Of a DNA stretch of 47,175 nucleotides, positions 5,205-43,430 are shown in pieces. Below the pieces are notes generated by a model, which was not told the origin of the DNA, did not search any database, and saw only the letters and a list, made by a program, of their open reading frames with translations. A program made the position numbers and the translations under genes. The stretch is taken from the sequence record SRR22947727_2426; one strand, 5' to 3'. Position 1 is the stretch's first letter. Every line of letters starts with the position of its first letter.

Positions 5205-6533
5205 TTACGCCAAAATCACATCCACCGTCCGCGCCGCCGCTCCACGATGCATTTCCATCTCTGCCTGACCGCGTTTTGCCATGTCAGCGGCTTTCTCTGA
5301 ATCTGCCAGAACATCAGCAATCGCTTTTTCCAACAAATCCGCGTCACTTGCCGGTAATTGGATAATTCCCTCTGCCGCAACGAGATCAGCCATCACGCCG
5401 GAGAAATTTTGCATGTTCGGGCCGACGATCGTGGGCCGTCCTGCCATGACGGGTTCGACGGGGTTCTGGCCGCCTTTTCCGGTGATGCTTTTTCCGATGA
5501 CGACGGCGTCAGCAAGGAAAAACCAGGCGCGGAGCTCTCCGGTGGTGTTGGCGATTAATGCCGGATTTTCGAACGCACCCTGTTGGTTCGATGAACGTAC
5601 CCTATTGGTTCGTAAAACGGAGGAAATGTCCTCGGCCACGAGTTCAGCCTGTATTTCTCCCGCGCGTTCGGCGTGACGGGGAACGATCACGAGCGCGAGA
5701 TCGGGCGTGGTTTTTTGAAGGTTCCGCCAAATTTTTCCGAGCAAGGCTTCCTCGCCGGCGTGGGTGCTGCCGCCAAGTAAAATGGGCTGATCATCGGTCA
5801 CGCCGTTTTCGCGAAGCCAGGTTCGCAGCTCTTCGATTTTTGCGTCGGGGCGATCGGTGGCTTGATCTTCGTCGAATTTTACGCTGCGGGTCAGGGTGAT
5901 GTTGTTGCGATCAATTCCGAGACTGCTCCAGCGATTAAAATCACCTTCAAACGGAACGCAGACGTGATTCACCATGCCGAAAATGGGACGAATCATAGCG
6001 CCGAATTGCAAATAGCGTTTTTCGGATCGAGGCGATAACCGCGCGTTCACGAGATGAATCGGGATGTCGCGTTTTTGAATCTGGCGACACAAATTGGGCC
6101 ACACTTCGGCTTCGACGAGGATCAGTTTTTCGGGCCGGATTAGCTTGATAGCCCGCCACGTCACGAGCGGGACGTCGACGGGATTGTGCAACACGGTGAC
6201 GTTTTTGGAATCGATGTATTTGTCGTCGGCGAGTTTCAATCCGGTCGTCGTCGTAGTCGTGAGAACGATGTTGCGATCCGGTTCGCGGTCGAGCAGGGCG
6301 GCGATTATTTTTTCGGCGACGAGAATTTCGCCAACGCTGACGGCGTGAATCCAGAAATTTCCCTCGCGGCTCAGTTTTTCGATGACTTCGGGTTTATAAA
6401 ATCCAAAACGCTGGCGAAAATTCCGTGCGAGCCCACCGCGACGGATTCCTTTGATAATAAAGGAAGGAAAACTGACGATCAGAAAAATCGGCAGCAGCAA
6501 ATTGTAGATAAATAGAACGATGCAGAGAGGCAT
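5205..6533 (-). CDS. waaA: 3-deoxy-D-manno-octulosonate (Kdo) transferase
   Basis: WIHAVSVGE, TTTTG, EAEVWPN, NARLS, STHAGEE, VPRHAER, GGQNPVEP, GPNMQNF. Confidence 0.95.
   Translation of the reverse strand: MPLCIVLFIYNLLLPIFLIVSFPSFIIKGIRRGGLARNFRQRFGFYKPEVIEKLSREGNFWIHAVSVGEILVAEKIIAALLDREPDRNIVLTTTTTTGLKLADDKYIDSKNVTVLHNPVDVPLVTWRAIKLIRPEKLILVEAEVWPNLCRQIQKRDIPIHLVNARLSPRSEKRYLQFGAMIRPIFGMVNHVCVPFEGDFNRWSSLGIDRNNITLTRSVKFDEDQATDRPDAKIEELRTWLRENGVTDDQPILLGGSTHAGEEALLGKIWRNLQKTTPDLALVIVPRHAERAGEIQAELVAEDISSVLRTNRVRSSNQQGAFENPALIANTTGELRAWFFLADAVVIGKSITGKGGQNPVEPVMAGRPTIVGPNMQNFSGVMADLVAAEGIIQLPASDADLLEKAIADVLADSEKAADMAKRGQAEMEMHRGAAARTVDVILA
5565..5617. repeat. Dispersed 53-bp bipartite element, copy A (direct arrangement), inside waaA
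   Basis: attttc-GAAC gcaccctgttg GTTC-gat-GAAC gtaccctattg GTTC-gtaaaa. Confidence 0.9.
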
Positions 6534-6548
6534 GGCGAAGGGGCTGGA

Positions 6549-7106
6549 TCAGCTTCGGGCGAGAAAACTAATGCGGGTGTCGCCGTATTTCTTCTCTTTT
6601 TGCACGGTCCACAACGGCGTCTCGGGCAGGGGATTCCGCGCCAGGGTTTCGAGAACGAACAAGCTGTCAGGTTTCAGGGACTGAGCGAGATTTTCGAAAT
6701 TGAGCAAATTTTCAAGCAGCTCGGTGGTCTCTTCGTCGCGTGCGTAAGGGGGATCCGCGAAAATGAGATCGAATGTTGCCTCCGAGCTGAGCCGTTTGAT
6801 AAACGATTCGACGTCGGTTTTTCGCAGGGTGGCGTTTTCGGAGAGTTTGGTTTTCGTAAGATTCGCCGTGATGATTTCGCACGCGTTCCGATTTTCCTCC
6901 ACAAAAAGGGCTGATTTCGCGCCGCGGCTGAGGCTTTCAATCCCGAGCGAGCCGGTTCCCGCAAAGAGATCCAGCACCGTGGCATCGGCGATTCGGAGGC
7001 CAAGCGATGAGAATACAGCTTCGCGAACCCGATCGGTAGTCGGTCGGGTGAAGGTTTTGGGAACGGTGAGCTGAATTCCGCCTGATAGGCCTGCGATAAC
7101 GCGCAT
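6549..7106 (-). CDS. rsmD: 16S rRNA (guanine966-N2)-methyltransferase RsmD
   Basis: Start at MRVIAG (ATG 7106); RPTTDRVREAVFS, VLDLFAGTGSLGIESLSRGA, IFADPPY, KKYGDT. Confidence 0.93.
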   Translation of the reverse strand: MRVIAGLSGGIQLTVPKTFTRPTTDRVREAVFSSLGLRIADATVLDLFAGTGSLGIESLSRGAKSALFVEENRNACEIITANLTKTKLSENATLRKTDVESFIKRLSSEATFDLIFADPPYARDEETTELLENLLNFENLAQSLKPDSLFVLETLARNPLPETPLWTVQKEKKYGDTRISFLARS

Positions 7107-7228
7107 ATTGAGTGGTTGAACTCTTGGTCTTATTTCTGCGGACTTCAATGAATATCCGACGGCTTCCTGCCTGCGATATTTCCCTCAAATCCGCTTTGTT
7201 TGATTTCGAATTGCGATAGAGTCGGGGA

Positions 7229-11396: not shown

Positions 11397-11438
11397 ATGG
11401 AATTGTCCTGACTATTTTCATTTTCAAAAACCGTCCCG

Positions 11439-11639: not shown

Positions 11640-11692
11640 GCTCCAGAATCATCAGGATTGGTTTCTCGAACTGGCCCTTTTCGATCGATTTT
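11640..11692. repeat. Dispersed bipartite element, degenerate copy G (inverted arrangement)
   Basis: GAAT catcaggattg GTTT-ctc-GAAC tggcccttttc GATC (11646-11686); same 4-11-4-3-4-11-4 geometry, flanks decayed. Confidence 0.6.
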
Positions 11693-16073: not shown

Positions 16074-17243
16074 CTACGAATTAATTATGACGCGTGAGCC
16101 GGAAGTCGGCATCACGATCCGGAGTTTTCCGACTGCCTTTTCAATTTTGGAAACGACGTCCGAAATCTCCACAGCGTTTGTGTATTTCGAAAGCGAAAAC
16201 CGAACGCTACTCCGAGCTCGATCCGATGAATAACCCATTGCTTTGATAATTCGGCTCGGCTTCACTGAACCCGTGCTGCACGCCGAACCGGGCGAACAAC
16301 AAACTCCAGCTTCGTCGAGAAGGATCAGTAAGCCTTCGCCGTCGACCCCCGGAAAGGATAGGTTTGAAGTGTTCGGTAATCGCTGATCGCGGTCTCCATT
16401 CACCTCGATGCCTTCGATTTTCTCAATAACAGCGGTTTCAAAATCGTCCCGCAACTGGCGCATCGAATCGTGGTGATCCATCGCTGCCAGCGTAATTTCA
16501 GCCGCTTTTCCAAAACCGACGATCCCCGCAACGTTTTCCGTCCCAGAACGTCGCCCGCCTTCCTGACCTCCGCCCAAAATCGTCGGCTGGAATCGTGAAT
16601 TCTGATTCACAAAAAGCGCGCCGATTCCCTTAGGCCCATGAAGTTTGTGAGCAGAAATTGAAAGCATCTGGATCGGTGAATCCGCGACCGATACAGGAAC
16701 TTTTCCGACCGCTTGAACCGCATCCGTATGGAAACAAACACCGTGGCTTTTCGCCGCTGCGGCAGCTTCTGCGATGGGCGAAAGCACACCCGTTTCATTG
16801 TTCGCAAAGATCAAACTCGCAATCGTCGTCCTGTCCGAAAGGGCTGATTCCCACGCATCAAGGTCGAGCCGTCCGCACGAATCAACAGGGTTCATTCGAT
16901 GAACGTACCCTATTGATTCGTAAAACTCACCCGCTTCAAAAATCGCGCTGTGTTCAACCGTGCTTGTAAGAATTTCTTTTCGATCCGGCCACGTGCCAAT
17001 GGCTGAACGCAACGCCGAATGATTCGACTCCGTCCCGCCGCTTGTGAAAATGATTTCTTCAGGCTGCGCTGAAATCAATGCGGCAACTTGCTCACGCGCC
17101 GTCTCGATTGCTTTTTTCGCGGCTTTTCCAAATCGATAACTCGCCGACGGGTTGCCATAATTCTCGTCGCCCAGCCACGGAAGCATTGCTTCGCGAACTT
17201 CGGGATCGAGAGCGGTTGTGGCGTTATTATCGAGATAGATCAT
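16074..17243 (-). CDS. iscS: Cysteine desulfurase (IscS/NifS group I)
   Basis: Start MIYLDNNATT (ATG 17243); GNPS, FTSGGTESN, NNETG, HTDAVQ, PLP-lysine SAHKLHGPKG, RSGTENV, catalytic GSACS. Confidence 0.93.
   Translation of the reverse strand: MIYLDNNATTALDPEVREAMLPWLGDENYGNPSASYRFGKAAKKAIETAREQVAALISAQPEEIIFTSGGTESNHSALRSAIGTWPDRKEILTSTVEHSAIFEAGEFYESIGYVHRMNPVDSCGRLDLDAWESALSDRTTIASLIFANNETGVLSPIAEAAAAAKSHGVCFHTDAVQAVGKVPVSVADSPIQMLSISAHKLHGPKGIGALFVNQNSRFQPTILGGGQEGGRRSGTENVAGIVGFGKAAEITLAAMDHHDSMRQLRDDFETAVIEKIEGIEVNGDRDQRLPNTSNLSFPGVDGEGLLILLDEAGVCCSPGSACSTGSVKPSRIIKAMGYSSDRARSSVRFSLSKYTNAVEISDVVSKIEKAVGKLRIVMPTSGSRVIINS
16873..16925. repeat. Dispersed bipartite element, copy B (inverted arrangement), inside the cysteine desulfurase gene
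   Basis: ccgcac-GAAT caacagggttc ATTC-gat-GAAC gtaccctattg ATTC-gtaaaa. Confidence 0.9.
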
Positions 17244-17368
17244 GAACGTTTTGGATAGAAAAACGAAACGACACAATTTCGATTTGAGCAACTGCTCGTC
17301 TAATCTTCCATCTCGCGCCGCGACCCCGCTATTGTGGCGCATGCTTCGAACCTGTCATCCTAGGTGTC

Positions 17369-18777: not shown

Positions 18778-21700
18778 TCACTTACCGCTTCCCAATTCTT
18801 CGTAGTATTTTTTCACCAACTCTCGGAATTCACTCGGAACAGGATCGCGATCAATCGGGGCGAGGGGATTTTCCTTATCCAATTTCGCCAGCTCTTCGGT
18901 TAAGCGATTCCGCATTTCTACGAGCGGATTGGTGATTCGTGTCGTGATTTGATCAGCTTGTGGCGGCAGGTTGTCGCGGCGATAATCAATCCGCATGGCG
19001 CGGGCATTGTCAGAAACTTTCGCGATTTCGTTTTTCAAATCCTCGTCCTCAACCATCTCTTCAATGTTGCTAAGCTTTTTCGCGAACTCCTCGTAGCCCT
19101 CGCCCGTGATCGGATCGAGTGAGATTTCTTCTTCAGGCTGATTGAAAAACAAAGGTTTTCCAGGCTGCGCTGCACCTCCGGGAGGTGGTCCATTTCGGCG
19201 ATCATCTCCGCCGCCGTTGTTTAGAGCACCGCCTCCACCACGTTGGTCGCCCGCTGATTCGCTTGGCGGAGGGTTGTTCGCAAAACCCTGACTATAGCCT
19301 TTGCCTTTGCCTTGGCCCTTTCCCTTACCCTTGCCTTTTCCTTCACCTTTTTCACCAGCTCCTTTTCCCTCACCCTCACCCTTGCCCTCTCCTTGACCTT
19401 TGCCCTTGCCGTCAGGCCCTTTTCCTTTTTCGCCTTTTACATTCTCAGCAAGCTGGCCCGGCTCACCTTTGCCTTTGCCCTCGCCGGGTCGTTTCGGCCC
19501 GTCCGATTTTTCACCTTTACCTGCGCCAGGTTGCTCTCCTTTTGGTGAACCTTTGGAGCTGTCGCCTTTGCCATCAGGGCTTGGCGTGCCCTTGCCTTTT
19601 TCCGCCATTTGCTGACCGCCGGGTTCCTGTCCGTCTGCTGCCGGGGTGAAGCCCTGTTCTTTCATTTTCTCCTCAATTTCTTCGTTCGAGGCGGATGGGA
19701 AGCCCGCATTTTTAAGCTGTTCTGCAGTGGCAACTTCTCCGGTTTCTGAGTTCTCAAACCGGGGTGCATCTCCAGGTTTTCCATCTGGTCCGCGCCGCTG
19801 TCCTTCCGCCACCTCCGTGTCCTCGCCATTTTTTCCGGGTTGATTGCCTCCTAATTTCTTCGCTTCTGCTTCCGTTTTTTCGATCAAGTCATCCAGCTCA
19901 CTTCGCGCAAGTCGCAGCGCATCCGCCTCGTTGCCGAGCACTTTTTCGGCGGCAGCTTCAATGTCCTTTTTCAATTCTTCAATTCCCCGAGCTGCGGCAC
20001 GCTCAGGCTCGACGGCCATTTCACGGCGATTGTAGCGGGTCAGCTGACTTGCCTCCGCCAACGAATTCTCCACCCCACTCGTCGTGCTTTCGCGAACGCC
20101 TTCGTAAAGCGCAGTTGAAAGCAACGGCTCAGATTCTTCGCTCTGCTCGCTGAGTTTGCGCATCTGATCAATCAAGTCATTCAGCTTCTTCTTTTGAGCG
20201 TCGATCTCCCGGGATAAAGCCAGATTTTCTGCCGGTGAATTGGCCTGATCAAAAACGTCTTTGCCCTGTTCACTTTCATCCAGCTTCTTGCCAATCGCTT
20301 CCTGGGCGTCGGCCAATTCCCGTGCCTTGTTCCGCATCTCGCGCATTTCGCCGGCGAATTGCCGTGAGGTCTTTTCGCGGAAATCTTCCTTCACCTCTTC
20401 CAATTCACGCTGTGCGCGTGTGGCTGAGTTTGCTGCGTCCGCGAGCTTGCCCTCATCGAGTTTCTCTGCGGTTTCTTTTACCGCCTCGCGTGTTTCCTCC
20501 AATTTCTCCCGCTCCTCCGCCATGTTGGCGCGATTCTCTTCGGAGTCCATTTTCTCGGTGACTTCATCAAGTTCCCGCAGGAGTTGCTCCTGTTCTTCTT
20601 GAAGGCGTTTCAGTTGGCGTTCCAATTCGGATTTCTCTTCTTCGGTTTTTGCTTCCTGGAGGGCGGACTCGAGTTCTTTGATTTTCTTCGCAATGGCTTC
20701 CTGACGTTTCGCCAATTCTTTCAAGCGGGTCAGAACTTCGAGGTTTGCCTTTTGTTCAGGCGTTGTCGGCATTTCCTCTTCGGCCATTCGCTGCTCTTCG
20801 TAGCGAAGCTCCTTCTGCTTCATTTCGAGCTCCATCATCTGCTGCTCTTTCGGTTGGCCCGGTTTTCCCTGACTGGGGTCTTGAGACATGGTCACGTTGT
20901 GCTCGCGATTTTTGGCTCTTACCAGCGTTTGGTAGGCATCTTTTGCAAAATCCAAAGCCGGCTCCAATTTTTTCCCATCCGGTTTTTCGAGAGCAACCGT
21001 CCATTCGCCGACGGCTTTCTCCATGAACCCACGAGCTTCGGTAAACAGAGCTTTCACCTCGGCGTCTTCGACTTTTTCCATCGCTTCATCAAGGAGACCG
21101 ATCGTGATCTCCTGAGACTGTTTCAAAACATCAACGTCGCTGGCGAGTTCTTCAATCGTCCGTCCCATTTGTTCACGACGAAGTAATTTCCAGCCCGCGT
21201 TGATGACGTCTTTTTGCATCTTCATCAACTTCTCTGACTCGCCGCCTTCGCCCTCGCTGGGCTCACCTCCCTGGGATTCTTTTTCGCGAAAGATGTCTTC
21301 GAATTCCCGGACTTCAGCGAAAAACATGTCGCTCATGGTGCGGCGCACTTTCCCATCGGGACCGAGATCTTCTGCCCAGAGGTGATACGAAACCATGTCC
21401 CGTGGCTTGGCTCCGATCTCTTCAAAATTGAATTGCGTGCTGAGCGGATGATTTTTTCCGCCCGCTAGTTTTCCATCTGCAAGCGTGACATCACGATCTT
21501 CTTTCCCGACTTCAAAAGTGACGCCGACACTCATCACACCGATGTCATCCCAGACTTTGCCTTCCACTGGCATTTCCTGAAGGGCTGAGACTTCCACGTC
21601 GGTTTTAGGAAATTCAAATTCCAATTTCGGTGGCTGATTTTTCTTCACGGTCACCGTGATGATCGGCGGTCGCTTATTGGCTCGTTCGCGATCATCGACC

Positions 21701-22821
21701 AGATGCAGCCGGTATTTTTGAGTCTCTTTCGGCTGATGGGATGCCACCAATACGCTGGGATTTTCAGAACTTGCCTTTAGCGAGATGATTTCCCCATCGT
21801 CCATTCCGAAGAGTTCAGCGTCTTTGACTGGTTTATTAATCGTCATGGACCACGCCAAATCAGAACCTTCCAGCAGTGAAACTTTGCGGGTGTCCTCGAT
21901 CGTTTTCGTTTTTTGTTCAGCGTAGGCTGGCGGCGTGATTGTCGCGTCAGCCTGACCTAGCTTGGGATGAACATACGTGGTGATCTTGAATTCGTCCGAC
22001 TGCTCCCCATCAAATTCGATTCGATAAACCGCGTCCGAATCAACTTTAGTGATCAATCCGGCAAAGACCTGTTCATCCAAGCCCGGCTGTAAGGTCACCC
22101 GACCGCGCTCGGCGCCTTCCTCTCCCGGATCGCGAATCACGACCATTGCGTTGGGCGGAATTCGTCCGTTGAACTTTGCTTCAACAACCAACTTTGTGCC
22201 GCGTTCGACTTCTGCGTCGCCGGGATTTACTTTGATTTCGTAATCACCCAGTAGATCAGGAATGGGCTGTTCGATTTTCGGTTCCGGCTTCGCCACATTT
22301 TTTGCGAGCTGGAGGATCCGATTGTTTTCACTGAGCAATCCGAACATCACTGCAAAAAAAGCGATCGCCGCAACGAGCTGAAGTGCGCCAGCCTTCACCA
22401 AACGGCTTCGCGAAATTTGTTTCACCCAATCATTTTTCAGCGCGTGATTCACCGCATCGAAGACAACCTGCTCCTGCAAATAGCCAAGCTCGCCATTCGG
22501 CCCCGGCTTCTGTTCGACCGCAGTAAGAAGTGCCGCCTGCAAATCCGGGTTCTCGCTCTCGATTTTATCCGCAATTTTTTTGACCGACGTCGTTTTTGAA
22601 TCGGCCCACCACAAAGCAATCAGCGCCGCAAAAATAACGCCGACTGCGACGGTGATGACAGCCGGCCACGACCAAAAATTCTCCAGCTTCGCGAGAACGA
22701 AAAGCACCGCTGCAATCGCCGATCCGATCAGTAAAACGGCAGCGAGTGCTTTGCGCCGCCGCAATGCTGCCTCAGCAGAAATGAGCGGGCGAAGTTTTTG
22801 ATCGAGGACGTTATGGATCAT
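18778..22821 (-). CDS. Large membrane-anchored coiled-coil protein (DUF4175-like) with Gly/Lys/Glu low-complexity region
   Basis: Three N-terminal TM helices, Ig-like beta region, long coiled coil, GKGEG-type repeats, C-terminal DPVPSEFRELVKKYYEEL. Confidence 0.8.
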   Translation of the reverse strand: MIHNVLDQKLRPLISAEAALRRRKALAAVLLIGSAIAAVLFVLAKLENFWSWPAVITVAVGVIFAALIALWWADSKTTSVKKIADKIESENPDLQAALLTAVEQKPGPNGELGYLQEQVVFDAVNHALKNDWVKQISRSRLVKAGALQLVAAIAFFAVMFGLLSENNRILQLAKNVAKPEPKIEQPIPDLLGDYEIKVNPGDAEVERGTKLVVEAKFNGRIPPNAMVVIRDPGEEGAERGRVTLQPGLDEQVFAGLITKVDSDAVYRIEFDGEQSDEFKITTYVHPKLGQADATITPPAYAEQKTKTIEDTRKVSLLEGSDLAWSMTINKPVKDAELFGMDDGEIISLKASSENPSVLVASHQPKETQKYRLHLVDDRERANKRPPIITVTVKKNQPPKLEFEFPKTDVEVSALQEMPVEGKVWDDIGVMSVGVTFEVGKEDRDVTLADGKLAGGKNHPLSTQFNFEEIGAKPRDMVSYHLWAEDLGPDGKVRRTMSDMFFAEVREFEDIFREKESQGGEPSEGEGGESEKLMKMQKDVINAGWKLLRREQMGRTIEELASDVDVLKQSQEITIGLLDEAMEKVEDAEVKALFTEARGFMEKAVGEWTVALEKPDGKKLEPALDFAKDAYQTLVRAKNREHNVTMSQDPSQGKPGQPKEQQMMELEMKQKELRYEEQRMAEEEMPTTPEQKANLEVLTRLKELAKRQEAIAKKIKELESALQEAKTEEEKSELERQLKRLQEEQEQLLRELDEVTEKMDSEENRANMAEEREKLEETREAVKETAEKLDEGKLADAANSATRAQRELEEVKEDFREKTSRQFAGEMREMRNKARELADAQEAIGKKLDESEQGKDVFDQANSPAENLALSREIDAQKKKLNDLIDQMRKLSEQSEESEPLLSTALYEGVRESTTSGVENSLAEASQLTRYNRREMAVEPERAAARGIEELKKDIEAAAEKVLGNEADALRLARSELDDLIEKTEAEAKKLGGNQPGKNGEDTEVAEGQRRGPDGKPGDAPRFENSETGEVATAEQLKNAGFPSASNEEIEEKMKEQGFTPAADGQEPGGQQMAEKGKGTPSPDGKGDSSKGSPKGEQPGAGKGEKSDGPKRPGEGKGKGEPGQLAENVKGEKGKGPDGKGKGQGEGKGEGEGKGAGEKGEGKGKGKGKGQGKGKGYSQGFANNPPPSESAGDQRGGGGALNNGGGDDRRNGPPPGGAAQPGKPLFFNQPEEEISLDPITGEGYEEFAKKLSNIEEMVEDEDLKNEIAKVSDNARAMRIDYRRDNLPPQADQITTRITNPLVEMRNRLTEELAKLDKENPLAPIDRDPVPSEFRELVKKYYEELGSGK

Positions 22822-22866: not shown

Positions 22867-22919
22867 TTAAACGAATCAACAGGGTCTGTTTGATGAACCA
22901 ACCCTGTTGGTTCGTTAAA
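22867..22919. repeat. Dispersed bipartite element, copy C (inverted arrangement), intergenic
   Basis: ttaaac-GAAT caacagggtct GTTT-gat-GAAC caaccctgttg GTTC-gttaaa. Confidence 0.9.
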
Positions 22920-27573: not shown

Positions 27574-28290
27574 ATGTCCGCCAGCATGATCGAAGCGAGC
27601 GAAAAATCAACCGTCACCCGCGCCCAAATTGCCGATAGCATTTGGCTGGATGGTCGTCTCGCGATTTGGCATGAAACGTCGAACTGGCTGGCGTTGAGTG
27701 ATGTTCACTACGGTTACGAGCTTTCGCGAAAGGCAATCGGTGGTTTGTGGCCAAATTGGGGAATGGCAGCGATCGAGGAACGGCTGGGTGAAATGATTGA
27801 TGAATATGCGCCCGAAAAGCTAATTCTCGTCGGCGATATTATCGATTCCAGCTTCGTCGGCATGGAGGGGATTCAATTTCTCGAGAAAATCATCGAGCGC
27901 ACGCCGGGCGAGGTCATTTTTGTGGAAGGGAATCACGACCGGGGCACGATCAAAGCCAAATTCGACTGGGTTCCGCAGTTTGATATTGACGGATTTCTAT
28001 TTCATCATGGTCATCAGCCGACGCCTTTGGGAGATTATAAAACGGAGGTTGTGGGACATTTTCATCCGTCGGTGAATCTTCGCGATGGAGCGGGGATGTC
28101 GCTGCGAATTCCATCGCTGGTTCAGGAGAGCTACAAAAATCAGGCGGACCGCTGGGTACTGCCGGCCTTTTCCCCGTGGGCCGGAGGTGGACGATTTAAA
28201 ATCGCGGAAGGTTGCGAAAGTGCTCGGCAATGGGTTGCGAGCACGACGCGAGTTTTTGAACTTCACGATCCAACCCTTTTGGATCGATGA
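27574..28290 (+). CDS. Calcineurin-like metallophosphoesterase (PdeM/ICC-like)
   Basis: SDVHYG, VGDI, GNHD, HHGH, GHFHP, LPAF motifs. Confidence 0.85.
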   Translation: MSASMIEASEKSTVTRAQIADSIWLDGRLAIWHETSNWLALSDVHYGYELSRKAIGGLWPNWGMAAIEERLGEMIDEYAPEKLILVGDIIDSSFVGMEGIQFLEKIIERTPGEVIFVEGNHDRGTIKAKFDWVPQFDIDGFLFHHGHQPTPLGDYKTEVVGHFHPSVNLRDGAGMSLRIPSLVQESYKNQADRWVLPAFSPWAGGGRFKIAEGCESARQWVASTTRVFELHDPTLLDR

Positions 28291-28313
28291 ACAGACCTTA
28301 GTAGTTCGTAACA
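28261..28313. repeat. Dispersed bipartite element, copy D (direct arrangement), spanning the metallophosphoesterase stop codon
   Basis: cttcac-GATC caacccttttg GATC-gat-GAAC agaccttagta GTTC-gtaaca. Confidence 0.8.
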
Positions 28314-28392: not shown

Positions 28393-31300
28393 CTACTTTG
28401 CCGCCTTCCTAGCTTCGTTCACTCCATCAATTGATTTGAGAATGTTTGTCTGCCAGGTGCCTTGCAATTTCTCAGGCTTTGCTCGATTCAAAGTGCTGAG
28501 CGCTTCATCAAATTCACCTCGCGCTGTTAGGATGCGGGCGATTCCCTGAAGGGCGTTAAACTGATCGGCTCCACCAATGCTTTCATCTCCTTCGACGATT
28601 TCTTTGTAGGCACTCAGCGCTCCAGCGGCGTCATCTAGATTGCGCTCCCGGTTCTGAGCAAGCGCTAGCCAAGCTGAATCGAGGGCGCGGGGATCGGCAA
28701 TCCATGGAAGTGCCTTAGTCAGATCTGATTCAGCGCTTTCTCCGTCTTTTAGAATGAAAAAAGCCCGTCCACGAGTGCGGTAAGCAACTCCGCGTTGCCA
28801 GAACGGCCACTTGGAAAGGTCCTCGTCGCCAAATTCTGAAATCACATCCGGTGCTTTGGACTGAATGAGCAGGTGTTGCATCTGCGCGGTTTTCTTTACG
28901 GCTTCAAGTGGAATTCTTTCAACAATCGGCCCTGCTTCTTTTCGAAGATGTATTGCGGCCTGTTCAAGAGCGGCTGATTTTTGGAAATCGTTGATGTCGT
29001 CGCTTTCTGCCAGAGCGAGAAACGCGTCGGCCTTGCGTGATTTCACTGCTTTGCGGTAGTCGAGTACGAAATCAGTCACCTCCGGATCAAATTCGAACGC
29101 TTGGGATTTGCCTGAATAGAACTGGGCAAACTTCATCGGTTCGTGGAAGCCTTTCGTGCCGGTTGGTGACAGCGCACTGAGCTCCTGACCGTCATTGCGA
29201 ATCCGTTGCCGACAGATATTGATATGCCACGGCAGGCTTGGGGTGGGCTTTCGGCCGATCACTTGATGCAGGGGATCATTTTCGTCCTGAGTAACCGGAA
29301 TTCGAATCTCTACGATCCAGTAATCGTCTTCGATGCTGGTAGCGACTTCAGCTTTCGAATTCCAACGTAGGCTGCCACCTTTGGAAGCCTCTCGATCAAG
29401 ATCGACCACTTGTCCGTCGGGGCTGATGGCGATTTGATAATAGGAGTGGGTTTCAGTGGCGATTTGAATTTCGATAACATCGCCATTCCACACGGCCGTG
29501 TCGTCGTCGCGAGTTGCTGCATTGACTGGACGCTCGCCGGGATTTTCATCGCAGCGAATAGCGAAGTAGACGCCGTTGCGATCGCATCCTGATTTGAATG
29601 ACGTCCCAAATGTCGGGATCTTTCCCGTTTGTAATTCATACAATCGTCCCGTTGCGGCAACGGCGCATTTTTGCCAGTAGGCGTCATCGAGTTTGCCATC
29701 AATCTTGATGTCGTAGGCATCTCCCACCATGCGAACTTTCGGAACCGGCCCCCGTTTTTGGCCCAGTTGCCCGGCTTTCATTCGAAGCCCGTTGAGAAAG
29801 TCATCGATCAACGCAAGACGCTGGCCGACGACACTCGAGGCGTCTGCTTTTGCCTGAGCATTTGCGAAAAGTTCCAGCGCCTTGTCGGCGATCGCCTTCT
29901 CGCCCTCCATCGCTTTCCAATTCTCCTCGCAGTAGGTGAAAAAGGCCCGCATTTCCTTTTCGGCCGGACCGTAAAAGAGCCTGCAGTATTCGTGAAACAT
30001 GGCATCACCCGTTCCTTCCTTTCCACTCCAATAACTGCGGGCCGTGAAGTAAACCATGAAGTGATTGAACCCGACATTGGTGTCGAAGTTTTTTCCGGCG
30101 GACAGCCAGATATCTTCGCCCATGGAGATTCCTTTGGTGGCGTCGACTGTCGAGGTGAGAGCGCGCGGGGCGAATGAAGGCAAATACCATCCCCGATCCG
30201 TGAAGGGATAGTTTTCGAAAATCATCAAAGGGTTGTCAGTCTTTTTGGCCCATCCTGCGCGCAGGGCTTCCGGGGACACTTCGCCTTCGCCTTTGTAGCC
30301 TGCTTTATTGATCGGGCGCCGTCCGCCAACGATGCAAACGACAACATTTGGCTCAAGCTTGTCGATGTTTTCAGGCGGCAGTGTGTAGACTCCGTAACCG
30401 CCATTTATAACCTTCGCCTCTGGGTGTGTTTTCGCGATCTCTTTGGCGACCCGGTTGGTGAAATCCCAAATGTGATTACTCAGCTTGCCCCGCTCGTGTC
30501 GCTCAGGCGAGTCCTTGCCCTCACATTTTTCGCACTGGCAAATTGCGGTGTAGCCATCGGGCGGCATCATCGAGACCGTTTCAAAATCGTAGGTATCAAG
30601 CAGGACGCGCGCGTAGCGAACAGTTTCCTGAAACAGGCCATCGTCAGAATAACAGAGCTGACATTTGGAATTCCCCGGCTTGAAATCACGTTTCCCGCCA
30701 TATAGAGCAAACCACTCGGGATGTTTCGCAAAGGCATCCGCGTTGTTGGTCATGCTGGACATTCCATGAGCCACCTGGATTCGTTCGTCATTGCGGGTTC
30801 CGAGACGCATCGCCCAATACGAAAGATCGTGACCAGACGTGCTGAAGCGGAAATTGAATTGTCGCAGTGGGAAATCCGGCTGAACCGTTTTGTCGATTTC
30901 GGGCAGCGGAATGGATTCCATCGAAGGAAGCACTTCACCCAGATCACCCGGCAAATACCACCGGGCTCCCAACTTCCGGAGAAAGCCACAAACCGCATTG
31001 AAACTGCCGCGTTCATCCAGTCCCCAGATGTCGAGCGTTTCCTTCGGGGCGGTCGTAGCTCCGTCAGCCTTTCCTGTCTCACCCGGCAATCGCAGCCGGT
31101 TTTTGTAAAGCCCCCGAGATGGCATGCCGTAGGGAGCACCAATGATCTTCTCCCACTCCGCTTGCGCTCGCGGGATGTCGCCGTTGTTACGGGCAAAGGG
31201 ATGTTTCGGCTCGAAGTCCTGGTCGTCCCCGATCAACGCTAACCAGTTCGGACCCGTGGCAATGCGATAAGCCCCCGCTTTCAATCCATCTGCCTTTACA

Positions 31301-31560
31301 GGATTGTCAGGGCTGGCCCCGATGAAGACATTTACTGCGCTGTCGGATGCTTGCGTGACGATAGGCAGTCGGGCGCTACTGATTTTTTCAACCTGCGATC
31401 GAAACTCCGCCGCCGCGACTCGTTGCATGCGCGTGGGAGTTTCTGAAATGACAATCACCGCCGTGGGCGCGCCATTTTTTACAATGAATGGTTCGGCAGA
31501 ATAGCTGGTAAAAGAAACAGTGAAAAACAGAAGGAGAATTGCAAGTCGTCGGGTTGCCAT
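28393..31560 (-). CDS. Secreted DUF4838-like protein with CBM9-like sugar-binding domain and C-terminal TPR-like helices
   Basis: Signal peptide; GARWYLPG, HPEWFAL, QLCYS, CQCEKC (DUF4838-like); IKIDGKLDDAYW...VEIRIP...WHINICR (CBM9-like); Ala-rich helical repeats. Confidence 0.7.
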   Translation of the reverse strand: MATRRLAILLLFFTVSFTSYSAEPFIVKNGAPTAVIVISETPTRMQRVAAAEFRSQVEKISSARLPIVTQASDSAVNVFIGASPDNPVKADGLKAGAYRIATGPNWLALIGDDQDFEPKHPFARNNGDIPRAQAEWEKIIGAPYGMPSRGLYKNRLRLPGETGKADGATTAPKETLDIWGLDERGSFNAVCGFLRKLGARWYLPGDLGEVLPSMESIPLPEIDKTVQPDFPLRQFNFRFSTSGHDLSYWAMRLGTRNDERIQVAHGMSSMTNNADAFAKHPEWFALYGGKRDFKPGNSKCQLCYSDDGLFQETVRYARVLLDTYDFETVSMMPPDGYTAICQCEKCEGKDSPERHERGKLSNHIWDFTNRVAKEIAKTHPEAKVINGGYGVYTLPPENIDKLEPNVVVCIVGGRRPINKAGYKGEGEVSPEALRAGWAKKTDNPLMIFENYPFTDRGWYLPSFAPRALTSTVDATKGISMGEDIWLSAGKNFDTNVGFNHFMVYFTARSYWSGKEGTGDAMFHEYCRLFYGPAEKEMRAFFTYCEENWKAMEGEKAIADKALELFANAQAKADASSVVGQRLALIDDFLNGLRMKAGQLGQKRGPVPKVRMVGDAYDIKIDGKLDDAYWQKCAVAATGRLYELQTGKIPTFGTSFKSGCDRNGVYFAIRCDENPGERPVNAATRDDDTAVWNGDVIEIQIATETHSYYQIAISPDGQVVDLDREASKGGSLRWNSKAEVATSIEDDYWIVEIRIPVTQDENDPLHQVIGRKPTPSLPWHINICRQRIRNDGQELSALSPTGTKGFHEPMKFAQFYSGKSQAFEFDPEVTDFVLDYRKAVKSRKADAFLALAESDDINDFQKSAALEQAAIHLRKEAGPIVERIPLEAVKKTAQMQHLLIQSKAPDVISEFGDEDLSKWPFWQRGVAYRTRGRAFFILKDGESAESDLTKALPWIADPRALDSAWLALAQNRERNLDDAAGALSAYKEIVEGDESIGGADQFNALQGIARILTARGEFDEALSTLNRAKPEKLQGTWQTNILKSIDGVNEARKAAK

Positions 31561-31692
31561 GCTTAAGAATTGAGCAAGGCCTCCTCACAGGCGAGTCTAA
31601 ATTGTCGCGAATTGCGCCAATTTAGCTGCTGATCCAACCGTGATGGATCTTGCAACCGGCACCGCGTTGGATCGGAATTTTGCTCCGCCGGA

Positions 31693-33319: not shown

Positions 33320-34846
33320 TCAGTATTTCACACCAGTAAGTGCGGCCCACGCATACCATTTTTTCGACATTTGGGCGACCTTGCTCGCCTGTTTTTCAGC
33401 AACATTGTTGGTCTCAGTTCGATCCAACCCTAGGTTGTAAAGTTCCCAACCATTTTTGGGGCTTTCCCAAACGAGTTTCCAAACTCCTTCGCGGATGGCC
33501 CGTTTTTTCGACCAGAACCAGAATAGCGGGGCAGGGCGTTTGATCGCCGCTTCTTCTCCGGTCAAAACCGGCACCAAACTGATTCCTTCCGGCCTGAGAA
33601 GGGGCTTCCCGTCATTCGACATCGGGAATTTACCATCGGCGACATCGAGAAAAGTGGGCATGAAATCGATGATGTGACCGACCTGATCCGTTTTTGAACC
33701 GGCTTTGATTTTCCCAGGCCAGCGAATGACAAATGGCGAGGCGACACCGCCTTCGTGAGTGTGCGATTTGTAGCGAGCGAACGGCGCATTCTGCGCGTAG
33801 GCCCAGTTTGGCCCAACATGACTGTACCAGTCTTTTGGTCCGGGACGATGTTCGGTATTTCCTGCGCCGCCGGGCGTTTCCGCACAGGCTCCGTTGTCCG
33901 AGAGAAACATGATGATTGTGTTGTCGGCGATTTTTAAATCATCGAGCGTTGTAAGAACCCGACCGATGTTTTGGTCCATGTTGTCGACCATGGCGGCGTA
34001 GGTTTCCATCCGCAGGCTCTCCCATTCGGTGTCCTCATTTTTGCCTTCGGCGAACGGTTTGTTGTTTGAATTTAGCCCCGGATCTGGAAACAACTTTGGA
34101 TCGATCAAACCCATTTCGACTTGGCGATCATATCGACTTTTACGAAGTGCATCCCAACCGGCGTCGTATTTGCCTTTATATTTAGCGATATCCTCCGGTT
34201 TGGCGTGGAGTGGGTAATGGGGAGCGGTGTATGGGAGGTAGTGGAAAAACGGCTTCTTGGTCGCCGATTGCTTTGTGATGGTTTCGATCGCGTGATCGGT
34301 GAAAGCGTTCGACGTGAAGAAATCGTCAGGGAATTCCGTGATTCGTTCGTCGTTTTGCCCAAAAAAGCGGACTTTGCCGCCTTTGAATTTTGGATCAGGC
34401 TGGTTGGGATCAAAGAAGTTGCAGCAGCCGTCCCATAATCCGTAGCTGGCCTCGAAGCCTCGATCGAATGGGCGGTGAGGCGCTTTGGAACCGTTGTGCC
34501 ATTTGCCGCTCAGGCCGGTTTGGTATCCCGCGAGTTTCAGGGCTTCGCCAAGCGTCAGCATGTTTTCGTTGAGAAGTTCAATGCCCTTGCCGCCATTTCG
34601 TGGGTAAAGCCCTGTCAGCAGACTGGCGCGCGTCGTGGTGCATTTGGCGTTGTTGTAAAAATTCGTGAACTGCATTCCTTCGCTGCAGATCCGGTCGATA
34701 TTTGGCGTCGAGATTTCGCTGCCGTAGCAGCCGATGTCCGACCAGCCCATGTCATCCGCCATGATCAGGATGATATTTGGCTGGTCTGCCGCCCGCGAGG
34801 TGAGGGCGGTCGTGAAGAAAATGATGAGAGCGAGAAATCGAATCAT
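33320..34846 (-). CDS. Arylsulfatase (formylglycine-dependent, Cys-type)
   Basis: PNIILIMADDMG, CTTTRASLLTG (CxxxR), GKWHNG, APHYPLHA, SDNG, ELYNL. Confidence 0.93.
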   Translation of the reverse strand: MIRFLALIIFFTTALTSRAADQPNIILIMADDMGWSDIGCYGSEISTPNIDRICSEGMQFTNFYNNAKCTTTRASLLTGLYPRNGGKGIELLNENMLTLGEALKLAGYQTGLSGKWHNGSKAPHRPFDRGFEASYGLWDGCCNFFDPNQPDPKFKGGKVRFFGQNDERITEFPDDFFTSNAFTDHAIETITKQSATKKPFFHYLPYTAPHYPLHAKPEDIAKYKGKYDAGWDALRKSRYDRQVEMGLIDPKLFPDPGLNSNNKPFAEGKNEDTEWESLRMETYAAMVDNMDQNIGRVLTTLDDLKIADNTIIMFLSDNGACAETPGGAGNTEHRPGPKDWYSHVGPNWAYAQNAPFARYKSHTHEGGVASPFVIRWPGKIKAGSKTDQVGHIIDFMPTFLDVADGKFPMSNDGKPLLRPEGISLVPVLTGEEAAIKRPAPLFWFWSKKRAIREGVWKLVWESPKNGWELYNLGLDRTETNNVAEKQASKVAQMSKKWYAWAALTGVKY

Positions 34847-34925: not shown

Positions 34926-34978
34926 TTTTACGAATCAACTCTATTGGTTCAACGAACAGACCCTGTTGGATCGTGGAA
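34926..34978. repeat. Dispersed bipartite element, copy E (direct arrangement), intergenic
   Basis: ttttac-GAAT caactctattg GTTC-aac-GAAC agaccctgttg GATC-gtggaa. Confidence 0.88.
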
Positions 34979-34987: not shown

Positions 34988-35542
34988 TCACCCTAACATT
35001 TCATCCACTTTCTCCAGAATCTCCTCAATGGGCCAGAGTCGGCCGATGCCTTCATAACCGCAGGCGAGCATGCCTTCTTCGGGGCCAATGAATTCGACGT
35101 TCCGCTCTCTTAACGTCACGACGTTTTTTTGAGTCGCCGGATGCCGCCACATTTTCCCGTTCATGGCTGGCGCTATTAAGATAGGGGCGAGTGTTGCGAG
35201 GTGAATTGCGGAAAGGGTGTCGTCCGAGAGTCCGAGGGCGAATTTTGCAACCACGTTGGCGGTGCAGGGAGCTACGAGAATCAGATCGGCGTCATCAGCG
35301 AGCTGAATGTGGCCCGGGTGCCAGCTTTGTTTTTCGTCGTATAAACTTGTGGTCACCGGATTTTTCGAAAGCACCTGCAAGGTTAGTGGCGTGATGAATT
35401 CCGTCGCGTCCTTCGTCATGACGACATGGACGGAGTGACCGCGTTTGGTCAATTGACTGGCCAGATCAGCGGCTTTGTAAGCTGCGATCGATCCGGTGAT
35501 GCCGAGGACGATGTTTTTTCCGATGGGTGGTTTTTCTGACAC
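34988..35542 (-). CDS. coaC: Phosphopantothenoylcysteine decarboxylase, stand-alone (HFCD flavoprotein)
   Basis: GITGSIAAYKA, HIQLA, APCTAN, PAMN, LACGYEGIGRL; 184 aa with no CoaB domain. Confidence 0.88.
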   Translation of the reverse strand: MSEKPPIGKNIVLGITGSIAAYKAADLASQLTKRGHSVHVVMTKDATEFITPLTLQVLSKNPVTTSLYDEKQSWHPGHIQLADDADLILVAPCTANVVAKFALGLSDDTLSAIHLATLAPILIAPAMNGKMWRHPATQKNVVTLRERNVEFIGPEEGMLACGYEGIGRLWPIEEILEKVDEMLG

Positions 35543-35591: not shown

Positions 35592-35945
35592 TCAGCCACG
35601 GCCAATAATTAGCTTTGCGAACTTGTTTTGCTCGGCAGGTTTCCCGCCTGCGGCACTCAGGATTGGACGATAAAGGGAATTCAGAAACGGATATTCAACG
35701 AAGTAGTAGCGAGTTATTCCTTCTTCACTTGGTCTTTTCTGCCAGGCTCTCCACTCGGGAGTTTGTGCACGGGGAATAAAGGTTTTTGAAGTCAGGAAAC
35801 GGTTTCCTCCAAGAGGATCTTCAATCCGCGCCACAAAAGCAAGAGGAGCCAAGTAAACTAATGTCGCCAAAACGAAAATAACTAGCGCAGTCCCGCAAAT
35901 TCTGAAAAGCCGCTCGCCACGCCTTTAATTCGTTTCTTCCGCCAT
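35592..35945 (-). pseudogene. Small membrane-protein pseudogene, paralog of 36081..36350
   Basis: ATG 35945 reads MAEETN*RRGERLFRICGTALVIFVLATLVYLAPL with an in-frame TAA at 35925-35927, where the paralog has Tyr. Confidence 0.65.
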
Positions 35946-36080
35946 CAAAACCAGCGTATCACACCCCAAAATTCTTTCCCACTCTCAACTTGGTTTCTTG
36001 AATCATCGAACACCAATGATGAAATTCGCGAATTTGTTTGATTCACCCTCAAGGTTGGCTGTGGAGATCAAGACTGGTCG

Positions 36081-36350
36081 TTAAAAGGTGTCGAGAATGG
36101 GGATTTTCAAATAAAAGCCAAACCTTGGCATCGTTGGCGCAGCAACAGAGGCTGATTGAAAGTTCAATGAAGCTGAATCGGAAGAGGGGCTGGGCATCAT
36201 GACGGCGAAATCGAGAAAGCGCTTATCTACTGACTGTTTTTCAAGTCGAGCCAAATAGACCAATGCCGCCGCCACGAGAACTACCAGCCAAATTCCACAA
36301 TTTCTAAAAAGCCTCTCGCAACGCCTGTATTTCGTTTCATCCGCCATCAT
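36081..36350 (-). CDS. Small hypothetical single-TM protein (possibly a remnant)
   Basis: MMADETKYRRCERLFRNCGIWLVVLVAAALVYLARLE; N-terminus duplicated ~402 bp away. Confidence 0.5.
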   Translation of the reverse strand: MMADETKYRRCERLFRNCGIWLVVLVAAALVYLARLEKQSVDKRFLDFAVMMPSPSSDSASLNFQSASVAAPTMPRFGFYLKIPILDTF

Positions 36351-36390
36351 AACCAGCCTATCACGGCGTAAAATTCTTCCCACTCTCAAC

Positions 36391-36428
36391 TTGACTTCTC
36401 GCTCTAAATTTGCATCTTAGCCGCCCGC
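36391..36428 (+). promoter_or_regulatory. Putative sigma70-type promoter for the tRNA gene
   Basis: TTGACT (36391-36396), 16 bp, CATCTT (36413-36418), then GC-rich discriminator AGCCGCCCGC. Confidence 0.45.
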
Positions 36429-36457: not shown

Positions 36458-36532
36458 AGCACGATAGCTCAGGGGTAGAGCAGAGGACTCATAAGCCTAA
36501 GGTCGGGAGTTCAAATCTCCCTCGTGCTACCA
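36458..36532 (+). tRNA. tRNA with CAT anticodon (elongator Met or Ile2), CCA encoded
   Basis: AGCACGA/TCGTGCT acceptor stem, GCTC/GAGC D-stem, CT-CAT-AA loop, GGGAG-TTCAAAT-CTCCC T-arm, ACCA end. Paired 1:72 and no GGG/CCC anticodon stem, so not the initiator. Confidence 0.95.
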
Positions 36533-37262: not shown

Positions 37263-37320
37263 TCGCCTAAAGCGGTTACGCCTTCTTTTGACACGAATGT
37301 TTCCACATTGAAATAATCCT

Positions 37321-37794: not shown

Positions 37795-37857
37795 TCGCTG
37801 ATTCTATTTCTTCGTCTAATTGACGTCCTTCGTTGTTTTATTTTTCTTCTACAGAAA

Positions 37858-40014: not shown

Positions 40015-40074
40015 GTGGTTGGCTTTCAAATTTTAAGAAAACAATTTTTAACGAATATTAACGAATAACGAATC

Positions 40075-40383: not shown

Positions 40384-40427
40384 TTTTCGCCCTTCGCATT
40401 TTTTCTAAAAACGAAAACAATTTTGCT

Positions 40428-41132: not shown

Positions 41133-41179
41133 AAGAATAGAAATTGAAGGAATTTTTCAACTGAAACCAGTTTAAGATT

Positions 41180-41803: not shown

Positions 41804-41834
41804 TATTTTTACCGAATTTTCAAACGGATTAGTT

Positions 41835-42119
41835 ATGAAAGACTTATTTCAGGTGATTGACACCATTCAGCTTAGCGAAAAGGCAACGATTCTCACGGAA
41901 ACAGAAAATGTTTACGTGTTTAAAGTTGATCAACGCGCGAACAAGTTGGAGATTAGACAAGCCGTCGAGAAATTGTTCTCGAAAAAGGTTACTGCTGTGA
42001 GAACAGCTAATTATCAGGGCAAGAAGAAGCGCGAGCGTCGCGCTGATTTTGGTCGCACTAAAAAGTGGAAGAAGGCTTTTGTGAAGCTTGCTGAAGGCGA
42101 AACTATTGAATTCGTATAA
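41835..42119 (+). CDS. rplW: 50S ribosomal protein L23
   Basis: ATG 41835; SEKA, ANKLEIRQAVEKLF, WKKAFVKL. Confidence 0.97.
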   Translation: MKDLFQVIDTIQLSEKATILTETENVYVFKVDQRANKLEIRQAVEKLFSKKVTAVRTANYQGKKKRERRADFGRTKKWKKAFVKLAEGETIEFV

Positions 42120-42163
42120 TTTCGAATCAATCGAACTAAATATTTTTAAACCGGGTCAGAACG

Positions 42164-43012
42164 ATGCCACTTAAAACCTACAAACCATTTACTCCGTCGA
42201 GCCGCTATAAGGTGCTGCCCGACTTCGCTGAGATCACGAAGACAACTCCTGAGAAGAGTCTTTGTCGTCCATTGAAAAAGTCCGGAGGACGTAATAATCG
42301 AGGACGTATCACGTGTCGCCACCGTGGTGGTGGTCACAAGCGGAAGTATCGCATGATCGACTTCAGGCGGAATCGTCGTGACGAAGCGGCGAAGGTGCTT
42401 TCAATTGAGTATGATCCAAACCGCACGGCGCGGATCGCGCTGATCGAATACGGCGACGGACAGAAGTCTTACATCATTGCTCCACGTGGGCTAGAGGTTG
42501 GTGCTTCTGTGATGTCCGGAGAGAATGCTCCAATCAAGCCGGGTAACGCGCTTCCAATTTCTGCGATTCCAACAGGATCAGACATCCACTGTGTGGAGCT
42601 TATTCCTGGTCGTGGTGCACAAGTTGCGCGAAGCGCTGGTCAGGCCTGCGTTCTTTCTAACCGTGAGAAAGGCTATGGACTTGTGAAGATGCCATCGGGT
42701 GAGATTCGCAAGATCAATGAAAAGTGCTATGCCGTCATGGGTGAAGTGGGTAACCGCGATCACATGAATATTGTCAGCGCGAAGGCTGGCCGGACTCGTT
42801 GGCTGGGAATTCGGCCTTCCGTTCGCGGAATGTGTATGAACCCGGTTGATCACCCAAATGGCGGTGGTGAAGGTAAGTCGAAATCAGGTGGTGGTCGCCA
42901 GCATTTGTCGTCGCCTTGGGGTCACGTTAAGGGGCAAAAGACTCGCCAGAAGCACAAGCCGAGCGATAAGTTTATTATCGAGCGCCGGAAGAGTAAGAAA
43001 CGCCGCCGTTAA
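42164..43012 (+). CDS. rplB: 50S ribosomal protein L2
   Basis: [34 protein letters not shown]. Confidence 0.99.
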
Positions 43013-43050
43013 TTGGTGATCACTTTGTATAATTCAAAACGTATTTAAAA

Positions 43051-43323
43051 ATGGGACGCTCACTCAAAAAAGGACCTTTTGTCGATCAGAAGCTTTTGAT
43101 CAAGATCGACGCAATGAATGACTCGGGTCAAAAACGCCCGATCAAAACCTGGTCACGTCGCTCAATGGTGACTCCGGATTTTGTTGGTCACACCTTCCTC
43201 GTTCACAACGGCAAAGATTTTCTTTCCGTGTTCGTGACTGAGAACATGGTTGGCCACAAGCTCGGTGAATTTTCTCCAACTAAGAAAACTTCCCCTCACC
43301 AAGGGCAAGGTGCTAAACGATAA
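43051..43323 (+). CDS. rpsS: 30S ribosomal protein S19
   Basis: [26 protein letters not shown]. Confidence 0.99.
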
Positions 43324-43376
43324 TTTTACGAAGCAATAGGGTTGGTTCATTGAACGGACCCTATTGATTCGAAAAA
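43324..43376. repeat. Dispersed bipartite element, copy F1 (inverted arrangement), abutting the rpsS stop codon
   Basis: ttttac-GAAG caatagggttg GTTC-att-GAAC ggaccctattg ATTC-gaaaaa. Confidence 0.92.
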
Positions 43377-43377
43377 C

Positions 43378-43430
43378 AAAAACGAAATGACCCTGTTGAA
43401 TCGACAGACTAACCCTATTGGCTCGTTCGC
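43378..43430. repeat. Dispersed bipartite element, copy F2 (direct arrangement), overlapping the start of the inserted gene
   Basis: aaaaac-GAAA tgaccctgttg AATC-gac-AGAC taaccctattg GCTC-gttcgc; 54 bp downstream of F1; contains ATG 43387. Confidence 0.8.

Follow-up and report, generated by a model that had tools for sequence, protein, structure and literature searches.

A bipartite element repeated across the window

Analysis of a 47,175-nucleotide stretch of DNA from sequence record SRR22947727_2426 (hereafter the window) revealed a 53-bp bipartite element, present in eight dispersed copies and accompanied by a lone half-site. Each copy comprises two 19-bp units separated by 3 bp and bordered by a T-rich left flank, TTTYAC, and an A-rich right flank, GTRAAA; the core of a unit may lie in either orientation, reading CCCTR or YAGGG. 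This geometry had been described in an earlier note on the window and proved to be correct, as did the position at which the first unit of each copy starts (5571, 11646, 16879, 22873, 28267, 34932, 43330 and 43384). With the unit pattern GAAYNNACCCTRTTGRTTC and up to three mismatches allowed, the window yields 16 matches, compared with 0.61 ± 0.90 in dinucleotide shuffles (maximum 4); none of 100 shuffles reaches 16.

The window belongs to a 5.97-Mb genome assembly, G000, in 229 contigs and 95.6% complete. The best matches to its ribosomal protein L2 are from metagenome-assembled genomes (MAGs) of Verrucomicrobiales, and the sequencing runs that contain the stretch are marine or aquatic metagenomes. 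Units were scored with a position weight matrix refined from genome data, using cut-offs of 14 bits and 9 bits. The orientation of each core is written as + or -, so that -+ denotes the palindromic arrangement, and ++ or -- an element in which one core is flipped. No strand is assigned to the full elements, which are listed here with the half-site.

5565–5617: element, ++, 27.4 + 28.9 bits; within waaA (5205–6533, minus strand), in a variable loop between two glycosyltransferase domains
11640–11692: weak, degenerate element, -+, 15.7 + 13.1 bits, 3 mismatches
16873–16925: element, -+; inside a class-V aminotransferase gene (16074–17342, minus strand), where it encodes EFYESIGYVHRMNPVDS with length unchanged relative to homologues
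22867–22919: element, -+; intergenic, between minus-strand genes 18778–22821 and 22943–25105
28261–28313: element, ++; over the stop codon of a metallophosphoesterase gene (27574–28290, plus strand) convergent with 28393–31560 (minus strand)
31631–31649, plus strand: lone 19-bp unit (half-site), 16.2 bits; between two minus-strand genes
34926–34978: element, ++; between a sulfatase gene (33320–34846, minus strand) and a flavoprotein gene (34988–35542, minus strand)
43324–43376: first element of a tandem pair, -+; starts immediately after the rpsS stop codon (43321–43323)
43378–43430: second element of the tandem pair, ++, 54 bp after the first; spans the start codon (43387) and first ~14 codons of a 294-residue open reading frame (ORF)

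The lone unit fits the half-site of the earlier note, and the reported placements stand: within genes (waaA and the aminotransferase), on a stop codon (28261), after the rpsS stop (43324) and over a start codon (43378).

Abundance and anatomy in the source genome

Scanning of G000 identified 2,162 units scoring at least 14 bits, against 26 in a block-shuffled genome, and 2,422 scoring at least 9 bits. The distances between units are sharply defined, with 942 pairs at exactly 22 bp, 180 at 32 bp and almost none at other short distances. The 32-bp pairs represent tandem elements with a 54-bp period, and clusters contain at most five units. A partner at +22 or -22 bp accompanies 89% of 1,766 strong units, compared with 0% at control offsets. 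The 22-bp offset corresponds to about two turns of the double helix.

Within the unit, conservation is concentrated in three blocks, CGA (positions 0–2), ACCCTRTTG (7–15) and TCG (18–20), the outer two forming symmetric clamps about the core, while positions 5–6 and 16–17 are variable. The arms are palindromic in consensus (GAAC..GTTC), and the highly conserved 9-bp core, ACCCTRTTG, is asymmetric. The cores adopt the -+ arrangement in 599 of the 942 elements, ++ or -- in 329 and +- in 14, which implies that some 18% of units are flipped with respect to the palindromic form. The spacer is ATC or GAT in 322 of the 599 -+ elements, with GAC or GTC next in frequency. The flanks follow the consensus noted in the window, the commonest hexamers being TTTCAC, TTTTAC, GTGAAA and GAAAAA.

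Position relative to genes

Gene context was taken from our own crude gene caller, which returns 4,574 genes at 88% coding. Elements are depleted from gene interiors: 99 of the 942 (10.5%) lie deep in a gene, compared with 77% of random positions. The intergenic class is the largest at 551 (131 in convergent, 108 in divergent and 312 in tandem regions), the remainder lying over a gene end (205), near a called 5′ end (54) or at a contig edge (33). Expressed per intergenic region, the counts are 131/680 for convergent, 312/2,346 for tandem and 108/714 for divergent pairs. Copies between co-oriented genes lie a median of 19 nt past the upstream stop codon and 63 nt before the next start, and 69% are nearer the stop. 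The distribution over convergent, divergent and tandem regions and genes upholds the proposal that the element is not linked to promoters, and the location is not that of a transcription-factor regulon.

Where one core is flipped, the element acquires a direction. Among asymmetric copies in co-oriented intergenic regions, CCCTR is on the sense strand in 76 cases and on the antisense strand in 32 (p = 3e-5); within genes there is no such bias (77 and 64). The direction of asymmetric elements is also associated with the sign of the local GC skew (p = 0.009).

Such placement invites an explanation at the level of RNA, in which a transcribed hairpin would act at the ends of transcription units as a bidirectional terminator, a protector of mRNA 3′ ends or an RNase site. 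The proximity to stop codons, the slight enrichment in convergent over tandem regions and the bias of asymmetric copies with respect to transcription would all be in keeping with this, and -+ copies fold well (-19 to -27 kcal/mol, z -4.7 to -7.4). However, the density in divergent regions is similar and copies occur deep within conserved genes. There is no base-pair covariation that would preserve the pairing: the complementarity of paired columns equals that expected of independent columns, both within the unit and across the long hairpin, and at the variable inner positions it falls below that expectation. The long hairpin is, moreover, removed in the 329 elements (35%) with a flipped core, and the four ++ copies in the window fold little or no better than shuffled sequences (z -1.05, -1.30, -1.50 and -3.35). 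An A-rich tract, rather than a run of U, follows the hairpin on either strand, so that neither the compensatory pairing of a structured RNA nor the U-tract of an intrinsic terminator is found. In an Rfam search of the whole window at gathering thresholds only a tRNA matched, and no family corresponds to the element.

Contigs from two RNA libraries of a single study bridge the tandem pair after rpsS, which lies in a ribosomal protein operon. This is weak evidence of read-through, since a contig need not represent one transcript. The RNA contigs of runs X16 and X17 leave 42982–43362 uncovered, a gap from which nothing follows. We conclude that the element is not a selected hairpin, and regard an RNA-level role as most improbable.

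Spacing along the chromosome

In G000, with units no more than 300 bp apart merged, there are 1,022 loci, and the 853 intervals between them average 5.27 kb. The spacing is far more even than random. The coefficient of variation (CV) of the intervals is 0.574, compared with 0.90 ± 0.026 for uniformly placed loci and 0.88 ± 0.029 for loci drawn from random intergenic gaps, the lowest of 300 nulls being 0.80. Both tails are trimmed, with 5.7% of intervals below 1.5 kb (about 20% in the null) and 1.1% above 15 kb (3.6–4.6%). The same regularity recurs in a second genus, where 420 contiguous kb of genome G068 give a CV of 0.66 against a null of 0.93 ± 0.12. The longest element-free stretches, of 17–23 kb, have ordinary GC content and coding scores, and by these two measures they give no sign of foreign DNA.

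Origin of the element in place

The copies within genes allow the manner of their arrival to be examined. An alignment of 20 aminotransferase homologues is free of gaps over the element, and in particular of any gap of 18 residues. At the DNA level the gene forms a series, from no motif in the outgroups G008 and G004, through a partial motif with an exact core in G003 (genus g2), to the full element in the three genomes of genus g1 (G000 and its sisters G001 and G002), the protein being homologous throughout. In an Hsp70 paralogue, the segment encoded by the element aligns with the DnaK sequence ‘..IDEVILVGG’ with a difference of only two residues. Transpeptidase and Methyltransf_28 domains that carry elements match their Pfam profiles over the full length and without excess. 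In waaA the element occupies a loop that is longer in some homologues than in others. For cysteinyl-tRNA synthetase, compared with a solved structure, the alignment around the element is too gappy for added length to be judged. Genic elements use all three reading frames, and copies in frame 0 exchange the GAT spacer, which would otherwise read TGA. On these alignments, the motif has evidently been built into genes by base substitution and not by insertion.

The copies also lack the marks of descent from a master sequence. Of 537 strong -+ elements, 536 are distinct 41-mers, and any two differ on average at 11.5 of the 41 positions. Only adjacent columns share high mutual information, which indicates that there are no subfamilies of copies. 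No target duplication was found in 836 elements, where direct k-mer identity equals that of shuffled pairs (offsets 0–12 (13), k = 2–8). The suggestion that the element is not a miniature inverted-repeat transposable element (MITE) is thus borne out, neither target-site duplications nor added length with master-copy subfamilies being present and the genic copies not being insertions. Nor is there a sign of phage origin: 11 viral contigs contain one exact unit each and none contains several.

A palindromic repeat of the repetitive extragenic palindromic (REP) type might nevertheless have spread long ago, mobilised in trans by a REP-associated tyrosine transposase (RAYT) or similar enzyme, and now be decaying in place as a selfish sequence of the REP, REP-doublet (REPIN) or MITE kind. 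The consensus is palindromic, -+ copies fold stably, tandem doublets exist and most copies are extragenic (58% intergenic). One study reports that REPs occur inside genes, that the verrucomicrobium Opitutus terrae is rich in REPs of the GTAG type, and that the REP tag is a GTAG or CGTC tetranucleotide (PMC3733652). No such tag stands at the end of the palindrome here, where the flanks are TTTYAC and GTRAAA, and no link to a RAYT was found, in agreement with the earlier view that the element is not a REP.

The only match to a Y1 transposase (PF01797, IS200-like) in G000, at C171:2452–2754 (locus L001), is interrupted by TAA, with the nearest units about 2 kb away; no RAYT flanked by repeats was seen in this assembly, which at 95.6% completeness could miss the gene. 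Y1_Tnp matches occur in 52 of 61 genomes of the family regardless of the motif, the match being weak in motif-rich G002 and none being found in G072. The missing target duplications and subfamilies and the origin of the genic copies by substitution count further against such a repeat. Its elements would also have to have stayed near consensus while their flanks became saturated, which neutral decay cannot produce, and their spacing is regular, neither random nor clustered. We therefore consider a decaying selfish repeat very improbable.

Conservation among sister genomes

Comparison with the sister genomes reveals that the strong window elements occupy orthologous places in seven of seven cases in G002 and in three to four of seven in G001. 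Yet syntenic DNA is only 64–82% identical, and intergenic flanks are unalignable. In the reverse direction, with at least one flank mapped, G000 has a counterpart for 10 of 12 G001 elements and 12 of 28 G002 elements; a further 12 G002 elements have no mappable flank. Where both flanks could be mapped, 9 of 11 have a G000 counterpart, compared with an estimated 10% expected by chance. Over 22 orthologous pairs, a few of which join the wrong tandem copies, the 53 bp have an identity of 0.68 and the outer flanks one of 0.39.

At individual sites, the waaA element has orthologous elements in both sisters, one core having the other orientation there. Core flips of this kind between orthologues imply that a flip is an event in place. 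The 22867 element is kept in both sisters despite its unalignable flanks; at 28261 there is a full element in G002 and a single unit in G001; the 34926 element has a counterpart beside the G002 orthologue and none was found at the G001 orthologues; and for the weak element at 11640 no orthologous flank was found in either sister. For sites 28261, 31631 and 34926 the left and right flanks fall on different contigs in the sister genomes, and synteny breakpoints may coincide with element-bearing intergenic regions.

The tandem pair at 43324 and 43378 is conserved in G002. A related strain represented in the RNA libraries differs at 10 places in the 108-bp pair, none of them in core positions 7–15. 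The 294-residue ORF that begins within the second element (43387–44271, plus strand) separates rpsS from the ribosomal protein genes that follow in the S10-type operon, and it is kept in G001 and G002. Its product has a hydrophobic N-terminal segment and a coiled-coil-like middle, with no Pfam match.

Distribution and dialects

Counts of the strict unit are 361, 65 and 415 in the three g1 genomes; it is absent from 37 of 38 other relatives, the exception being a single occurrence in G008, and controls give 0. Of the two sisters, G001 is the closer to G000 in sequence, yet its units number about half or fewer. Of the 30 genera sampled, the 9-bp core is strongly enriched over controls in one other, g27, to which G068 and G076 belong (929 versus 35, 396 versus 57, 418 versus 42 and 225 versus 51), and weakly in g2 (94 versus 27 and 57 versus 13); the remaining 27 genera show background levels.

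The g27 form is a dialect of the same element. In G068, with a GC content of 65%, it reads GACCCAAC-CCT-GTTGGGTC, position 3 having changed from A to C and position 17 from T to G. The 22-bp register is retained, and the -+, asymmetric and +- arrangements number 34, 14 and 1, compared with 599, 329 and 14 in G000; the flipped fraction of about 18% per unit is equal in the two genera. By elongation factor EF-G, G068 and G031 (72–73% identity) are no closer than motif-free G004 (73%), which gives no grounds for grouping the carrier genera in one clade.

A probable recognition site maintained in place

The independent consensus half-sites, the two-turn register, the symmetric change in the arms and the indifference to hairpin loss fit a protein that binds cooperatively to double-stranded DNA. 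A process that maintains roughly one site per 5 kb is compatible with motifs born by substitution, with elements conserved between saturated flanks and with their even distribution. Overall, with the observed abundance, anatomy, orthologous conservation, dialects, even spacing and absence of transposon hallmarks in view, we think it likely that the 53-bp element is a genomic recognition site maintained in place. Much of this is not visible from a single window: the ~1,000 loci, the origin in place, the orthologous conservation, the dialects and the regular ~5-kb spacing emerge only from the genomes.

As to mechanism, one sequence-specific protein would bind the double-stranded site cooperatively, as two protomers or as two dimers, and the sites would be created and kept by base substitution at ~1,000 loci roughly 5 kb apart. 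The earlier note had envisaged two cooperating dimers on one face of the DNA. The 22-bp register of the paired units, the lack of covariation and the symmetric arm change accord with that picture; no binding protein came to light, and the dimers themselves are still conjecture. Upkeep in place at ~1,000 loci would require either selection at each site or molecular drive.

Two candidate factors were considered and set aside. A scan of 61 genomes for ParB_N, aimed at an extra DNA-binding paralogue, found one canonical ParB in each, and a second, weak match does not follow the motif. The weak ParB_N-like match lies in an ORF of about 100 residues at C139:17105–17263 in G000 and C263:13651–13818 in G002 and is not found in G001; the g27 genomes lack this small ORF, their only second match being a different, 567-residue frame in G076. 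A resemblance of the unit arm to the consensus for integration host factor (IHF) was dropped because the two differ by one base in spacing and the common arm does not match. A text search of the literature for the 11-bp core in either orientation returned nothing that concerns bacterial repeats by title or abstract.

Role of the element

Our tentative choice of role, at less than even odds, is a genome-wide ‘self’ signal in DNA exchange, either uptake or recombination. Such a signal, comparable with the uptake signal sequence (USS) of Pasteurellaceae and the DNA uptake sequence (DUS) of Neisseriaceae, would accumulate by drive. Clade-restricted over-representation with dialects and origin by substitution in place, including coding sequence, are found here as in known uptake sequences. 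The literature describes clade-specific dialects of uptake sequences (PMC3630211) and their origin by point mutation in pre-existing sequence, including genes, with enrichment in non-coding DNA (PMC1939737). The competence proteins ComEC and DprA are intact in G000. Drive alone is said, in work by Maughan et al. in 2010, to yield the spacing of uptake sequences.

Alternatively, the element may serve nucleoid architecture, with a dedicated DNA-bridging or domain-boundary protein and with selection keeping about one site per 5 kb in order to organise or compact the chromosome. This alternative shares the protein-site layer of the explanation above and differs only in role. The deficit of short and long gaps, repeated in G068, would suit it well, as would the paired units in fixed register, which suggest a multimer. 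Conservation both in and between genes has likewise been reported for the cyanobacterial highly iterated palindrome HIP1, for which the authors infer a role in chromosome structure (PMC5861425). The patchy distribution over g1, g27 and weakly g2, of the 30 genera, would demand a clade-specific protein, and none was found; selection acting site by site would also, on its own, be hard put to preserve some 40 informative positions at 1,000 loci. We know of no nucleoid protein with ~1,000 sites of such high specificity, which further counts against it. On balance we hold an architectural role to be rather unlikely, and the uptake role is slightly favoured over it.

Several points weigh against the uptake signal or the maintained site on which it is built. 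ComEC and DprA are equally present in motif-free G004 and G008 and so do not discriminate. In the titles and abstracts searched, which cover 8 of 16 matching papers, neither uptake sequences nor natural transformation is reported for Verrucomicrobia. Known uptake sequences have a short (~9–12 bp), non-palindromic, single core, whereas the units here are 19 bp long and 89% paired. Neither a binding protein nor a receptor was identified. Of the 28 G002 elements, 16 have no G000 counterpart, although for 14 of these one flank only could be mapped. The stop-proximal placement and the 76-to-32 direction bias would also suit a role in RNA or transcription. Finally, all of the compared genomes are draft, MAG-like assemblies, and gene context depends on the crude caller.

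Taking the site and its reader together, we see about an even chance that they form an undescribed recognition system, in which a dedicated multimeric protein would read a 53-bp site written by substitution approximately every 5 kb, conserved genes included, protein and site co-evolving into genus dialects, with a role either in self-specific DNA uptake or recombination or in nucleoid domains. The size and specificity of the site should make the cognate protein findable, which would tie a sequence signature to a mechanism.

Other features of the window

Three further repeats were noted. In the ribosomal protein cluster, the ORF at 44743–45552 (plus strand) ends in a Gly/Arg-rich, RGG-like tract whose coding sequence (45389–45538) contains five overlapping copies of a 54-nt repeat. 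The minus-strand gene at 18778–22821, a 1,347-residue ORF, has a short-period repeat at 19286–19437 with 12- and 18-nt spacing. A segment of about 160 nt is duplicated at 35840–35998 and 36242–36399; the copies are 402 nt apart, some 77–84% identical, and lie just upstream of a tRNA-Met gene (36458–36532).

Comparison with known systems

Over-represented words kept in place on chromosomes, such as uptake sequences, HIP1, Chi and the FtsK-orienting sequence KOPS, are few and short and occur in a handful of clades. Whether they originate by selection or by drive is debated, as is the function of HIP1-like words. To our knowledge, neither transformation nor nucleoid organisation has been studied in this phylum. 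The high information content of the present element, with its two 19-bp units in fixed register, makes the process unusually readable: the base-by-base birth of the motif in conserved genes, core flips at orthologous sites, genus dialects and a measurable constraint on spacing can all be followed.

The mobile families are the less close analogues. REPs, REPINs and bacterial interspersed mosaic elements with their RAYTs are likewise short, palindromic, mostly extragenic, often in inverted doublets and occasionally genic (PMC3733652). Unlike them, the element lacks a GTAG or CGTC tag, is not accompanied by a RAYT flanked by repeats and does not fall into subfamilies, and it combines an origin in place without indels with regular spacing. 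The same study mentions the Rickettsia palindromic elements (PMC3733652). These resemble the present element in being palindromic repeats inside protein-coding genes that leave the frame unbroken, and differ in that homologues of the element-bearing genes here show no added length. Rickettsia palindromic elements insert in frame into genes and so add residues.

The nearest analogues are DNA uptake sequences and HIP1. Like USS and DUS, the element occurs in hundreds to thousands of copies in both orientations, and it shares with them origin in place, dialects and conservation at orthologous sites in a genome with intact ComEC and DprA. It differs in lying in another phylum and in being a 53-bp bipartite site, 89% paired, where the USS and DUS cores are of 9–12 bp, non-palindromic and mostly single (PMC1939737). 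HIP1 (GCGATCGC) is also hyper-abundant, conserved both in and between ORFs and distributed in a non-random, quasi-periodic manner, and the HIP1 papers propose a role in chromosome structure or gene transfer (PMC5861425, PMC4390886, PMC13756078). It is, however, an 8-bp perfect palindrome, linked to orphan methyltransferases and present up to once per gene; the element here is 53 bp long, with an asymmetric core, and occurs once per four to five genes. Its density of about one per 5 kb also differs from that of uptake sequences, which is about one per kb. The element is neither a REP nor a MITE; it belongs in one class with uptake sequences and HIP1, as a new form with a much longer site. If site and dedicated protein do make up a recognition system of the kind proposed above, no such system would have preceded it outside Proteobacteria and cyanobacteria, and its site would be by far the longest of the class.

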